This document shows, piece after piece, positions 5,723-42,436 of a stretch of 64,000 bases of DNA; within the stretch, counting starts at the first letter, position 1; the number at the start of each line of letters is the position of its first letter. A program made the position numbers and the translations under genes. The stretch is from Mobula hypostoma (Eukaryota): the NCBI RefSeq assembly GCF_963921235.1, contig NC_086097.1, positions 97,218,001 through 97,282,000 on the forward strand, given 5' to 3'. The notes beneath the pieces were generated by a model that saw nothing but the letters and a program-made list of their open reading frames with translations, did no database searches and had not been told where the DNA came from.

Positions 5723-5834
5723 GGCCTTGTACTCTGTCGCTACTTCGAGCAGGAAAATATTAACTTTACAGGGAAGAAGATGATTGAGCTGGGCTCTGGA
5801 ACGGGGATAGTTGGGATTTTAGCAGCCCTGCTGG
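5723..5834 (+). CDS. EEF1AKMT3: Paralog A internal coding exon (112 nt) carrying SAM-binding motif I
   Basis: Acceptor gtttcgtttcAG (5721-22) and donor G|GTAAGT (5835). Translates [37 protein letters not shown], close to human METTL21[37 protein letters not shown] (recalled). Too short for the ORF track. Confidence 0.92.
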
Positions 5835-6224
5835 GTAAGTTAATTCATCCAATCGTTTTCACTGCAACGATAAAGTAACATTACAAATAATGTTATCAAC
5901 TATATACACATTTGAATAAGTGAGGGTCAAGATTACAATAGTGCTTAGGTCTCTAATTTACATTTATCTTTTGTGTTCCACGGTCAGCGCGCATTGTCCT
6001 AGAACATATGATATAGACCAGTCTAGCACAATGGCTGCGATATTGCACGTCTACGATATTGTACCGATCTTTTAATGCATTCGACAATCAATCTAGCCTT
6101 TCCCTCCCGCGCAGCTATCCGAAAGCCATCCTGACCATCCCAAATCAGACTATCTTCTCTATATACTCGTAAATCCTGTCGCTAAGAATTTTCTCCAATA
6201 GTCTGCCCACCACTGACGTAAGAC

Positions 6225-7470
6225 TGTCATGGTCCGGTCCGAGAAGTCCGTATTCCGGCTCACGGTTCGGTCCATAGTTCCTTATTCCAGGGTTTCTGGT
6301 TTTCCCCAATTTCTGTTGTAGGCACATGATTCTCGTTTTGGGGCTGAGACATAAATACCTCTGCAAACCAGGATTCCCTGTTGGACTGTTCTGTTCCCCT
6401 CCATGTCTCCCCGCCCCCTCGCCTGACTCTCTGCCTGGATACCTCGCCTGACTCGCTGCCTGGGTACCTCGCCTGACTCTCTGCCTGCTCACCTAGCCTG
6501 GATACCCCGCCTGTATACACTGCCTGTATAGCTGAAATTTTCCACCGAAGCAAAACCGGAGCCTTGTTACGTCAAGATAAGGAACTGTCTTTCGTCGTGT
6601 GGATTGTCTCTCTGTGTCCACGCCTTCGTTAGGTAGGTCCGTCCGTTTGCCGCTACCTCGTGTTAAGAACTGTCTCTGTGTCCACGCCTTCGCTAGGTGG
6701 GTCTGGCTGTTTGCCGCCACCTTGTGTTGGGATCCGTCTCTTCATGTTCAGCGTTCTGTGTATGAGTCCCGGCCCTACGTCCTGTTCCCAAGGAGAGGTC
6801 CCGCCTCTGTGTTCCGTGCTCCCGTCTCTTCTAGTCCAAGGCTGCCTGCTCCCATCTCTTCTAGTCCAAGGTTCTCTGCTCCTGAAGGCTCTCGTCCGGT
6901 CCGTGCCTAGTCCAGTCCTATCCGAGTCCTGTCCATCTGCCTTTACCTGTCCTTGTGTCTCGCCCTGCACAGCAGTTCCTCATCCAAGCCATGTCCAGTC
7001 CTGTAGCCTCGTCTTGTCCTCGCCTAGTTCTGGAGTCTGAGCCCGAGTCAAGTCCCAGGTTCTGGGTCCTTGCCCAGTTTCTGGCTCGGAGGCCATACCC
7101 AAGCCTCGAAGTACCTTCGACCCAAGCCTCAAGACCCCAAGCCTGTCTCCAAGCCTCAAGCCTCAAGACCTCAGCCTCCAGTCCTGCAGTCATGTCATGT
7201 CCTTGCCTGGTTCTGGGGCACGAGCCCAAGGCAAGACCCAGGTTCTGGGTCCTTGTCCGATCTCCGGCTCGGGATTCTAGCCCAGCTTCCTAGTTCGTAG
7301 TTCCTTGTCTCGGTTCCCTGTCTAGTCCATGTCCTAGCCCAAGTCTGCGTTCTTGTCCCTGCTCCTTGTCTGTATCCTGTCACGCCCCTAACTCTAGTCA
7401 GGTCCTGTTCCTTGTACTTTGGTGTCTGTGTCTTGCAGTTGAGTCCGTTCCCAACGTCCCCATTATGACA
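6225..7470 (+). mobile_element. Solo LTR, family 1 (Gypsy-like), 1246 bp
   Basis: TGTCAT...ATGACA termini; 5-bp TSD AAGAC (6220-6224, 7471-7475); inserted in a CR1 remnant. Confidence 0.87.
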
Positions 7471-7506
7471 AAGACTCACTGGTCAATAATTCCAGGATTA
7501 TCCATA

Positions 7507-38671: not shown

Positions 38672-41364
38672 CTGAGGAAAGAGACAAAATGCGTTTCTAC
38701 ACCACTTTCAGACAGAAGCCGATGTGAGAAAGTGGGAATAGGATGGTGGTAGGGTACGTGCGGAAGACTTTCGTGAGAGAAGGTCAGCGCAGCCTTCCGA
38801 ATTCTGAAGAACAGTTGATTTAAAGGAATCGGGGCCTTAAACGAAGGAGACGAGAGAAATGCAATGGAAACCCAAAACGATTACTATTAACTTGATTAAA
38901 CTTTTACAGTTTTGTTCAGTTTGAAAGTCAGAGCGAAATGATCAAGGACAAGGATTGTGATGTACTGCATTGACAGTATAGGGCAACGGTGGAAAAGTGA
39001 GGCGAAGGGTAGGTCGAAACAGGGTTCAATTCACCTGAAGATAGAAGGAAACAGAATTTCGCTGGTGAAGAGCGCGTTGAACGTTTTGTGCTGGTGAAAT
39101 ATAAATGGTTAATTTGAAGAGAAGGCGGTAACTTGTTGCAAGCTTCTCTCTCACACACCCACTTAACGTTGTTTTACTTACAACACTACAAAAGTATGGT
39201 TATCATATTGTACGTTGTGACTTGCGGACAAAATCGATTTATGGATGTATGCAAATACCAAACCTATTTGTTACCTGGTTTTATGTTGACATTGAGTATG
39301 AGAGACATAGCTAGTGAAGAACCTTGTGTCTCCGTTGGTAGGGACGCGAATCAAACTCCACTAGATTTGAGATTGTAACTCGGCAAGTCTGATTCCATGG
39401 TCAGAAGGACAGGCCAAAGATGGTTCTCGATCAATGCAGGTGTTGGTTGACCCATTCGAAGCGAACTGTGGAACTCGTCCGTGTTCGTTTCTCCGCTTTT
39501 CTCACTAAGATTTCCCTGGTCTTGTCATTTCAGCTTGAGACTCGTCTTTCATCCAACACGTTTACAACTCAGAACTACTTGCGGTTCGAGGCGTATTTTG
39601 TAGATCGGCTCAACTTGTAAGGCTTCATATTTTGGAAATATTTCTTCGGTACCAAACTCGATTTTTTCTTTGTTTTGCATATTCTCTTTACAATGTCATG
39701 CAGCTGGAATCTTTCTCGGGGGGAGAAAACTTCGCCCCCGCCCCGGGAATAATCAGAACCCTGACAAATCCTCATGCTTCCGATGCACATTGTTGCTGCA
39801 CTAAATAACAACGGTGGAGTCTTAGAGTTTTTTTTTTAAATATAGAGCCAGTGGAGTCGCAGTCCTTAAGTTTTAAAGTTTGTCTCATTGTTCTAGCTGA
39901 ATGGACACTGTCGGCATGCGGGTTGAGCACAGGGCCCGTATCTGCGCACTACTGTTCTACCATGCTTTGACTTGTATTGCAGGTTCAAAGGAAGAATCGG
40001 CGGAAGTATTGCATATGGCTTCCCTATCACCGTCTGTGTCTATAGTTTATTTGTGATTCTGTACACATACATTGTCTTAATTGTTTTCCTCCGCTTCTCG
40101 GTAAATCGCTATTTATTATGCTTATAAAGTTCAAACCTCAGCCCAACGGGTACCTTTAACTGATCCTACCCTCATTTTATTCCCACCCTCACAACCACCT
40201 AACACTGGAAATCAGTTACCAATAGGGAAGGTTGGTTTAGAGGAATGTGGGCCAAACTCGGGTCATCAGAACAGAAGATGTTGGATCAGAATTGAGCCAT
40301 GGGGCCCGCCGAGTTTGCCTCGGCGAGGGTCGCTCATGGAAGCAAAGACCTGGTTCCGTGCTGTATAACTCTGAACCTAAACCAGACCACGTGGAGGAAA
40401 CCCCGCCTGGCCGCAGGGACAAAGTGCACAATAACAACACTTGTGATCAGAATTGAAACTGGAGCTGTGCCACTGTCGTTTCCATAACTCTGCCAGATCC
40501 AACCAAATTATCATTTCGGTTAGGAAGAGCTAGCGAAGTGTTCTCCCGTTGGTTATCCTTTCAACTTTCCGGAGCTATTCAGAATCAGGATAATTATCAC
40601 CGGCATATGACGTGAAATTTGTTAACTTAGCAACAACAATTAAATGCAATACATAATTTATTTTTCCTCTAAGTAATTAATTAGTATACGTATATTGAAT
40701 AGATTAAAAGCGTGCAATAACACATACTGTATATTAAAAGTGAGCTAGTGTCCAAGGGTTCAATGTCCATTTAGGAATCGGATGGCAGACGGGAAGAAGC
40801 TGTTCCTGAATTGCTGTGTGTGACTTCAGGCTTCTGTACCTCCTATCTGATGGTAACAGTGAGAAAAGGGCATGCCCTGGGTGCTACAGGTCCTTAATAA
40901 TGGATCTGCCTTTCTGAAGTTGTCCTGGGTACTTCGTAGGCTAGTACCCAAGCTGGAGCTGACCAGATTTACAACCTTCTGCAGTGTCTTTCGGTCCTAT
41001 GCAGGAGCCCCCTCCCCATCTCCATATATGATATGTCTGGTATGTCCAACATTTTCTTCATTTGTTAGATTCCCTGGGTACCAATTATATCAATACAGTA
41101 TATGGTCCAGTCTATTGTACAAAGTCCACGGCGTCTCTCTCTGGTGTACCTGAATGCACCTCGGTTACAATAAGGCAGGCTTTAGGAACGGAAACGTGTC
41201 AAACATCCCCACACAAATGTGCGTCATTCTCCATCGAGGGGCTTATACTACACTGGTTTAAAATCAGAGTACACTCTGCGGGTAGCCTCCCGGAGACGTG
41301 CATGCTTCTGATCCAAGCCACCGCTGCCAGAAGCTCTTCGGCAATTGGCAAAGGTAGAGAGTAA

Positions 41365-42255
41365 TTCACAAGGATGTTACCTGTCCTGGTGGGTTGCTGA
41401 TATAAAGAGGCTGAATGGGCTGGGACCTTTATTTCTCCGGGCACTGGAACCTGATGGGTGACTTTGCAGAGATATTTCAAATCATGGTAAGGTAAAATGT
41501 CAGTCTTTTTCCCTCAAAGTAGGGGAGTCCAAGTCTAGAGGGCATGGAATTTAAGGCGAGTGAGGAGAGAGTTAAAAGGGGACTGAGGGACAAGTTCTTC
41601 CACAAGGAAGATAGTGGGTGTATGGAATAAGCTGTAGAGGCAGGCACAATTATTGAGATTAGAAATCATAGAACACTGCAGCAAAGCAACAGGCCTTTTG
41701 GCCCATTTAGTCTGTGCCGAACTGTTGGCCTAGTCCCTTTGATCTGACCCGGACCATCACCGTCCCATCCATGTACCTATCCAAATCTCTCAAATTTGAA
41801 ATCTATCCCGCATCCAATACTTCCACGCTCTCACGACTTCGAGTGAAAAAGCTCTCCCCGAGTATTCACTGTCCGCCTTTAACTCTAGTTCTAGTCTCAC
41901 ACAACCTGGGTGGGTGGGTGGGTGCAGGGGGAACCTACTTACACTGGCCCTACCAATAACCCTAATAACTTTACATACTTCTATCAAATCTCCACTCAAT
42001 CTTCTACGTTCTAAGGAGTAAAGCCCTAACCTGTCCAATCCTTCCCCGTACATCAGGCCCTTAAATCCTAGCAACATCCTTGTAAATTTTCTCTGCACTT
42101 TCAATCGTATTAATCTTTCCTGTCGTCATTTAAAAGACATTTGCTCGGATACATGGATAGAAAACATTGTGGGGGATATGGGCCAAACACAAGCAAGAAG
42201 GACTGGCTTGGATAGATGTCACAGACAACGAGAACGAGTTGTACTGAAGGGCTTG
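41365..42255. mobile_element. CR1 3' fragments in both orientations
   Basis: Minus ORF 41790..42104 (VQRKFTRML...LERRRLSGDLIEV) flanked by plus-strand CR1 pieces. Confidence 0.7.
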
Positions 42256-42310
42256 GTGTATCAGGATTTCTCTTAAGCAAAATAGACTGGTAATAGGTTA
42301 TCAGACTTAC

Positions 42311-42436
42311 AGGACTCCAGACATAAGCAGAAACGCCCAATGAAGATTCTTTAAACAGACTAATCTTCATAGTATGTCCATCAAATTCATAATCTCTCTC
42401 CTCCAACAACATACTGTTATTTTCTGTACCAGACAT
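42311..42436 (-). CDS. EEF1AKMT3: Paralog B first identified coding exon
   Basis: MSGTENNSMLLEERDYEFDGHTMKISLFKESSLGVSAYVWSP then donor GTAAGT (42310). YEFDGHTMKI and LGVSAYVW match the METTL21 N-terminal pattern. An acceptor ctttaatctcAG puts the exon start at 42468, with the frame open to the ATG. Confidence 0.85.

Follow-up and report, generated by a model that had tools for sequence, protein, structure and literature searches.

EEF1AKMT3 is a single gene in humans and, to our knowledge, the human 7BS lysine methyltransferases each act on essentially a single substrate. The human enzyme (METTL21B, eEF1A-KMT3; PDB 4QPN) is like the two genes described here, A and B, in its fold, PF10294 domain, motif I, post-I Asp, DxxY motif and Val-Trp-Tyr cage, and A and B are approximately 45–49% identical to a primate EEF1AKMT3 ortholog. 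By contrast with the human enzyme, A and B lack the N-terminal FP..LF.D and the SKMR-x-EH motifs, carry ELGSG in place of ELGAG, have a proline two residues after the cage Trp and a 2-residue deletion in a hairpin, and are multicopy. METTL21D (VCP-KMT; PDB 7OAT, 8HL7) has the cage, DxxY and ELGSG in common with A and B, but displays only ~26% identity and is specific for p97 K315. In the primate FAM86/eEF2-KMT duplicates, an MTF16 gene has likewise multiplied within one lineage; according to PMC10238732 they are recent and mostly pseudogenes, whereas the shark and ray copies are old, have diverged to ~50% identity and evolve under purifying selection.

The window analyzed here is a 64,000-nt stretch of contig NC_086097.1 of Mobula hypostoma. 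It contains the METTL21B/EEF1AKMT3-like genes A (forward strand) and B (reverse strand) in convergent orientation, with their 3' ends ~21 kb apart. The last two exons of both genes match M. hypostoma RefSeq proteins named 'EEF1A lysine methyltransferase 3-like' with 100% identity. In gene A, coding exon 2 (5723..5834, forward strand, 112 nt), which covers helix 1 and motif I, corresponds to residues 33-70 of P0001 and is followed by a repeat-filled phase 1 GT..AG intron (5835..11794, 5960 nt). The last coding exon (11795..12246), ending at the stop codon, corresponds to residues 70-219 of P0001 and encodes the post-I Asp, the adenine-stacking Trp, DxxY and a shortened beta6-beta7 hairpin; spliced together, the two exons form 187 open codons. 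The first coding exon of A was not found in the window, where a tblastn search with P0001 matches only exon 1 of gene B, and presumably lies upstream of window base 1.

Gene B, on the reverse strand, consists of an exon with the ATG at 42436 (42311..42468; coding from 42436 to 42311, phase 0 at its end), the motif I exon (38560..38671, 112 nt) and a last coding exon that ends at the stop codon (33600..34000; 100% to residues 69-201 of P0064), and its spliced frame has 212 open codons. The ATG exon encodes the cage Val, the cage Trp and the position equivalent to Asp44 of METTL21D, and matches the orthologs P0017, P0012, P0022 and P0065; the RefSeq model of gene B (P0064) skips it and therefore has no cage exon. 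A candidate exon further upstream (44546..44609, reverse strand) has a GT donor and is separated from 42468 by a 2077-nt intron. It is used in RefSeq models of two Mobula species, has an uncertain 5' boundary, probably belongs to gene B and is likely 5' UTR.

The GT-AG borders of all introns and the open spliced frames confirm the initial annotation of two spliceable methyltransferase genes on opposite strands sharing a 112-nt motif I exon and a phase 1 junction. At the stop frequency of the window, open frames of this kind are expected by chance with a probability of ~1e-4 for A and ~3e-5 for B. The same annotation called both genes intact and free of frameshifts, which holds for the spliced frames but less so for gene A as a whole: since its exon 1 is outside the window, its intactness rests on RefSeq P0001, and its tail displays a one-base shift. 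An A7 run after the last beta-strand (12163..12169, forward strand) sets the frame apart from that of the Hypanus ortholog P0059, the tail of which is 100% identical in another frame (12164-12193, stop at 12194-12196). Either an assembly error in the homopolymer or a harmless change of the tail may account for the shift. The spacer and introns are repeat-filled, with very high repeat depth; a Pfam RVT_1 match at 14.0-15.1 kb within this repeat-filled DNA and a Tc3 transposase match below the Pfam cut-off at 29.5-29.8 kb bear out the earlier description of the surroundings as transposable element sequence. Searches with 158 queries found neither exon 1 of gene A nor a third family member in the window, and no TSFM-like ORF was noticed there. 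One contig of run X1, a run only guessed to be RNA, joins the last two exons at the exact junction, with letters that are those of a sister paralog and belong to neither A nor B. No exon joint attributable to gene B was found in the reads of 4 of the 15 runs, covering the gene B region, and run X3 likewise has none in that region.

The phylogeny (82 rows, careful LG+G4, rooted on METTL21C/E with METTL21A) places both genes in the METTL21B clade (support 98/99), which indicates descent from METTL21B and not from METTL21A/C/E. Within it, a chondrichthyan clade (100/98) comprises a conserved ortholog (8 rows, 100/97) and paralogs (51 rows, 100/98), and A and B fall together in a subclade of 25 rows (100/99) rather than in different ancient METTL21 orthogroups; a mixture-model quick tree recovers the same groups. 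In a wider comparison of 42 subclade rows with 116 others, both genes belong to one 42-row elasmobranch subfamily. This is one of six subfamilies with shark and ray members, which make up the 128 paralog rows and are together sister to the conserved copy annotated with TSFM. Bony vertebrates have one EEF1AKMT3 gene per species among the matches, and Heptranchias yielded as many as 20 distinct protein clusters. The lineage-specific expansion proposed at the outset thus stands as a multiplication in cartilaginous fishes, but is far larger than a pair and spans sharks and rays. A and B as sisters are rejected (p-AU 1e-53), ruling out a recent Mobula-level duplication, and their split predates the separation of rays and skates. 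An older duplication, with the copy later lost from bony vertebrates, is compatible with the AU test (p-AU 0.128). The multi-domain matches P0233-P0235 are teleost METTL21C-like proteins and were dismissed as family members. A literature search found no description of this METTL21B/EEF1AKMT3 expansion, which is hidden by the automatic RefSeq name shared by all copies.

Human EEF1AKMT3 is, we take it, a neighbor of TSFM. In sharks and rays the conserved copy comprises P0044, P0040 and P0074-P0080, several of them annotated as TSFM isoforms; TSFM-named P0044/P0069/P0075 and TSFM-fused P0039 form a clade separate from A and B and are located on another contig. In M. hypostoma the conserved copy is found on a chromosome-scale contig of 73.1 Mb, A and B on one of 256.4 Mb, with synteny outside the window judged from contigs of equal length and from neighboring accession numbers. 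TSFM is not mentioned in PMC7283543. A and B are therefore not the conserved TSFM-associated positional copy. The latter is the sister clade of the paralogs and has GSD in common with them, but keeps all ortholog signatures and shares just 50% identity with A or B. The tree clades, the loss of signatures and purifying selection all uphold the suggestion that A and B form a separate subfamily and are not the true EEF1AKMT3 ortholog.

The catalytic core of this subfamily is fixed. P0001 scores 104.6 bits (E 6.5e-30) and the gene B ortholog P0065 106.3 bits against PF10294 (cut-off 21 bits), and the last exon of either gene alone reaches 55-62 bits. The AlphaFold model, made for gene A, displays the 7BS fold at pLDDT 91 and has human METTL21B (4qpn) as its best Foldseek match (TM 0.85, rmsd 1.2). 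The cage Trp and Tyr, motif I, post-I Asp, adenine Trp and DxxY are present in 42/42 subclade rows, and the cage Val in 38/42, including all seven A and all seven B rows. Motif I, post-I Asp and (D/E)xx(Y/F) are among the family motifs named in the relevant part of PMC5416902, and the METTL21D cage is given as V38-W43-Y147 in the structural accounts of PMC9942839 and PMC10339199; a Val-Trp-Tyr cage with Val permits trimethylation.

The docking surfaces are a different matter. Those accounts (PMC9942839, PMC10339199) list R18, D44, E174 and Y210/D214 as METTL21D substrate contacts, and P0001 V25/W30/E31/D77/W108/D126/Y129/N156 align with METTL21D V38/W43/D44/D96/W126/D144/Y147/E174. Solved-structure searches returned no METTL21B-eEF1A complex. 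On this map, borrowed from METTL21D-p97, remodelling affects the N-terminal segment, the beta6-beta7 hairpin and the sites equivalent to Asp44 and Glu174; at the Asp44-equivalent site A keeps an acidic residue (7/7 rows). Out of 96 columns with at least 85% conservation in the 30 orthologs, the subclade keeps 55 and loses 20, including the N-terminal VFP..LF.D, K177/R179/E181/H182 and R203. The EEF1AKMT3 signatures (FP..LF.D, ELGAG, SKMR-x-EH, 17-residue hairpin) are missing from the subclade: FP..LF occurs in 26/30 orthologs and 0/128 paralogs, ELGAG and the Lys of SKMR each in 30/30 orthologs and 0/42 subclade rows, and the hairpin deletion (15 vs 17 residues) in 42/42 subclade rows and 0/116 others. 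Among the derived features put forward initially, REG is subclade-specific (28/42 vs 0/116), but ELGSG is more widespread, being present in 118/128 rows of the wider expansion and in human METTL21D. GSDIVY fails as a marker, as GSD is found in 9/10 conserved shark and ray orthologs.

We consider it somewhat probable (about 0.6) that A and B are active protein-lysine methyltransferases whose targets differ from eEF1A K165. A copy would have moved out of the TSFM-associated ancestral locus and given rise, mostly on one chromosome, to at least six subfamilies common to sharks and rays, of which A and B would be old, separately conserved members. Both are predicted to be SAM-dependent and capable of trimethylation; in P0001 numbering, Asp77 and Trp108 would bind SAM together with motif I, and Asp126/Tyr129 would hold the target lysine. 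The replacement of distal docking surfaces that are fixed in EEF1AKMT3 from sharks to mammals makes targets other than eEF1A Lys165 most likely; these are probably other cytosolic proteins, with target or affinity probably differing between A and B. The new substrates suggested initially for the subfamily are thus plausible.

It is conceivable, if rather unlikely, that the copies still methylate eEF1A, at K165 or at a lysine close to it, and that the expansion divides or amplifies this activity according to tissue, stress signal or eEF1A paralog. METTL21B is the closest solved relative (E 1e-54 vs 1e-35 for METTL21A). PMC5416902 describes METTL21B as stress-inducible and places K165 in a variable patch that is not the same in all eEF1A paralogs, so that co-adapted enzyme variants are imaginable. 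Yet the conserved ortholog (P0044 group) is still present in the same genomes, the subclade has replaced residues that are invariant or almost invariant across the 30 orthologs, and six old subfamilies seem many for one eEF1A site. Loss of N-terminal segment and shortening of the hairpin, which leave a smaller docking surface, could instead reflect a switch in chemistry to small-molecule N-methylation, for example of methylamine osmolytes, or to histidine methylation. Elasmobranchs use methylamine osmolytes, and METTL18, a histidine methyltransferase (weak match 4rfq), has a related fold of the PF10294 type. We regard such a switch as very unlikely: the lysine cage and DxxY match those of the MTF16 enzymes that act on protein lysines, and Foldseek ranks no small-molecule methyltransferase nearby (E 1e-8 vs 1e-25).

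A birth-and-death array whose copies are weakly functional or in decay, with A and B kept by chance, would fit the repeat-rich setting, the frameshift in the A tail, the aberrant RefSeq models P0064 and P0061 and the long branches of some paralogs. We also regard this reading as very unlikely. Between A and B, dN is 0.19 and dS 1.77, giving an omega of 0.105, with dS near saturation (pS 0.68) and a bootstrap range of 0-0.18; a value near 1, which would have spoken against the initial interpretation, is not seen. Skates, sawfish and stingrays carry one-to-one orthologs with identities of 80-94% (for the core, 88% between A and its skate orthologs and 80% for B), all catalytic residues are kept, and the introns of A and B display no non-repeat homology to each other. 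Among the 13 differences in a partial list for the last exon of gene B against the relatives X4/X8, 8 are nonsynonymous and 5 synonymous, a pN/pS of 0.44 that is not significant alone (p=0.13). The A/B subfamily is under purifying selection.

Each of the genes already has an annotation, and the results do not yet amount to a new mechanism. It would be a long shot to propose that cartilaginous fishes built a many-enzyme lysine-methylation system, tied to their urea and methylamine physiology, from a gene of which bony vertebrates have one. Speculatively, lysine methylation on abundant proteins could shield them from urea-derived carbamylation, or trimethyl-lysine could feed the methylamine pool; the physiological link is drawn from general background, and the data speak to the expansion and the remodelling of surfaces. 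With a fixed catalytic core and rewired docking loops, the shark and ray copies offer a natural series for substrate acquisition by such enzymes, and their expansion indicates that protein methylation in cartilaginous fishes includes an unexplored layer.

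Six-frame motif scans and inspection place gene A on the forward strand, where its 112-nt exon spans 5723-5834 and its last exon 11795-12246, and gene B on the reverse strand, running from the ATG at 42436 to 42311 and on through a 112-nt exon at 38671-38560 to a last exon at 34000-33600. The two EEF1AKMT3 (METTL21B)-like genes are convergent, with GT..AG at every intron and a phase 1 junction downstream of motif I, confirming the spliceable pair with a common 112-nt exon proposed in the initial annotation. The accompanying description of both copies as intact and free of frameshifts stands in that the spliced frames are open; the first exon of gene A is absent from the window, and at an A7 run (12163-12169) its tail takes a different frame from that of the Hypanus ortholog. 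The final ten residues of this ortholog can be read at 100% in the neighbouring frame. The frame difference sits beyond the last strand and leaves the domain untouched. Over shared exons the genes display 70% protein identity (114/162) and 72% DNA identity (350/486); outside exons they have nothing in common but repeat matches. Inverted copies of a putative retroelement at 3.1-4.8 kb (reverse) and 7.3-9.0 kb (forward) flank the 112-nt exon of gene A and flip the GC skew. Several putative LINE copies, RT-like and 80-96% alike, include those at 35.8-36.8, 46.0-47.3 and 56.5-58.2 kb of the window.

RefSeq names both proteins "EEF1A lysine methyltransferase 3-like", on a 256.4-Mb contig of Mobula hypostoma: P0001 is identical to the two exons of gene A and P0064 to the last exon of gene B, with both exons also matched by eye. 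P0064 leaves out the conserved exon 42468-42311, which carries the active-site Trp, takes in exon 44609-44546 and a stretch near 42733, and is probably a mis-model. The gene B structure read from the sequence agrees with the orthologs P0065 (99.5%), P0017 (94%), P0012 (90%) and skate P0022 (80%). In M. birostris, the model of gene A (P0061) overruns the last exon into non-family pieces at 13.5, 18.9, 21.2 and 21.7 kb (window 13533-21957), which suggests that the 3' end of this exon is troublesome in that assembly too.

Three protein searches (matches listed: 58 of 58, 120 of 355 and 120 of 430) retrieved many chondrichthyan copies among the matches listed, and with the paralog profile 120/120 of those listed bear chondrichthyan names. 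Counted as distinct 90%-identity protein clusters rather than genes, which isoforms may inflate and unlisted or shared clusters may deflate, the matches listed include 20 clusters in Heptranchias (15 on one 87.3-Mb contig), 14 in Heterodontus (10 on one 131-Mb contig) and 6 in M. hypostoma (4 on the 256.4-Mb contig). A conserved tandem cluster is suggested by a single 1.05-Mb scaffold that bears locus tags chiPu_0014294, _0014301 and _0014302, and by the consecutive accessions of the skate orthologs of A and B. One Heptranchias cluster of 15 sequences (P0188, 12.4-Mb contig) may be a recent local amplification. A separate conserved copy (P0044, P0069 and P0075, named TSFM isoforms), found in M. 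hypostoma on a 73.1-Mb contig, retains the signatures of bony-vertebrate EEF1AKMT3; in P0039 the conserved copy is joined to a TSFM-like N-terminus. Shared exons or read-through with TSFM are suggested as the source of these annotations. In human, EEF1AKMT3 and TSFM are neighbouring genes. Predicted proteins of 680-1940 residues from piranha relatives, catfishes, anchovy and sardine (P0233, P0234, P0235, P0242, P0251) contain 2-6 tandem METTL21C-like domains with acidic linkers; these are either genuine multi-domain enzymes or gene models that fuse tandem neighbours.

A 158-row tree, with 17 partial, isoform or mis-modelled rows removed and bony vertebrates thinned to 20, divides into 30 conserved orthologs and 128 paralogs. 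Among the latter there are six starred subfamilies, all containing both sharks and batoids, and two long-branched rows from Callorhinchus. Both A and B fall in one 42-row elasmobranch subfamily, together with a third batoid gene, C. For gene A, which groups with shark genes, orthologs occur in stingray, sawfish, skate and electric ray; for gene B, in stingray, sawfish and skates. A sister relationship of A and B is rejected (p-AU 1e-53). The proposed lineage-specific expansion with a separate subfamily is upheld at the chondrichthyan level, as more than a pair and with A and B not sisters. In an 82-row rooted tree, whose outgroups were identified by name except three, chondrichthyan sequences group together (100/98) and divide into the conserved copy (100/97) and the paralogs (100/98). 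Judging from these trees, the chondrichthyan stem is the most likely starting point of the expansion, and every copy would then be a co-ortholog of human EEF1AKMT3. An older origin followed by loss in bony vertebrates is a weaker alternative: uniting the conserved copy with bony vertebrates is not rejected (p-AU 0.128), in trees built without teleost, gar or cyclostome rows. Of 140 further proteins newly retrieved, 20 were checked by name.

The proposed sequence markers differ in value. REG occurs in 28/42 subfamily rows and 0/116 elsewhere, and is therefore a valid marker. ELGSG separates the paralogs (118/128) from the orthologs (0/30), but says little about function because it is also found in METTL21D. 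GSD is not diagnostic, being present in 9/10 conserved shark and ray orthologs. Omega between A and B is 0.105 (bootstrap 0-0.18; dN 0.19, dS 1.77, near saturation), well below 1, as anticipated for the pair. The last exon of gene B differs from relatives X4 and X8 by 8 nonsynonymous and 5 synonymous changes among the 13 coding differences listed (pN/pS 0.44, p=0.13). One contig of run X1, which we guess to be RNA, links position 34001 to 38571 across 10 intervening letters, precisely at the exon 2-3 junction. Hand translation of its loose ends gives IELCQHFQN, the same as gene C (P0013); the junction is in use within the subfamily, seen in gene C rather than A or B. The spliced contig spans window 33931-38639, and its depth of 1788 possibly reflects strong expression in some tissue, contig depth being a poor measure that cannot rank expression.

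The predicted model of gene A (pLDDT 91) best matches human METTL21B (TM 0.85). In METTL21D, the available text of PMC9942839 and PMC10339199 describes a V38/W43/Y147 cage, whose Val permits trimethylation, and catalytic D144, and places specificity in the distal contacts R18, D44, E174 and Y210/D214. Mapped by alignment (offset +5), gene A keeps every cage, catalytic and SAH-binding position: V25/W30/Y129, D126, and D77 with W108. The cage would take the target lysine, Val allowing trimethylation, with D126 as the proposed catalytic residue and D77 and W108 as proposed SAH contacts. The predicted docking surface is altered. The D44-equivalent site is acidic in 30/30 orthologs, Glu in 7/7 gene A rows and Gly/Ser in 7/7 gene B rows, and is followed by a new Pro in 42/42 subfamily rows; the E174-equivalent site, the invariant Lys of SKMR in 30/30 orthologs, is never Lys in the subfamily. 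The N-terminal FP..LF segment is absent from 128/128 paralogs, and 42/42 subfamily rows have lost two residues from the beta6-beta7 hairpin, regions matched to R18 and Y210/D214 by position rather than alignment. Taken from residue comparisons, A and B would be active lysine methyltransferases with a changed target (probability roughly 0.6). The main rival is continued eEF1A methylation under divided regulation; with the docking sites changed as they are, we consider it rather unlikely. In the portions available of PMC5416902 and PMC10238732, METTL21B is a vertebrate-limited enzyme specific for eEF1A K165. Among other paralogs, 3 rows have Gly and 7 have Glu in an altered DxxY motif (P0034/P0066/P0067 and the P0123 group), while the cage Val is replaced in many by Ile, Phe or Thr, with a changed methylation level or lost activity as possible outcomes.

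Searchable literature, subscription journals excepted, yielded no paper on this expansion, and only one, unrelated to it, on METTL21B and shark. The accessible part of a metazoan METTL survey (PMC8662637) contains no shark or chondrichthyan term, and the expansion is not mentioned in the main text and 12/24 supplements of a whale shark paper (PMC8455134) or the main text of a Greenland shark preprint (10.1101/2024.09.09.611499); it might figure as an expanded orthogroup in other supplements of the two shark papers. Genes A and B are real and already automatically annotated, and belong to an apparently not yet described, old and chondrichthyan-wide radiation of a known enzyme.
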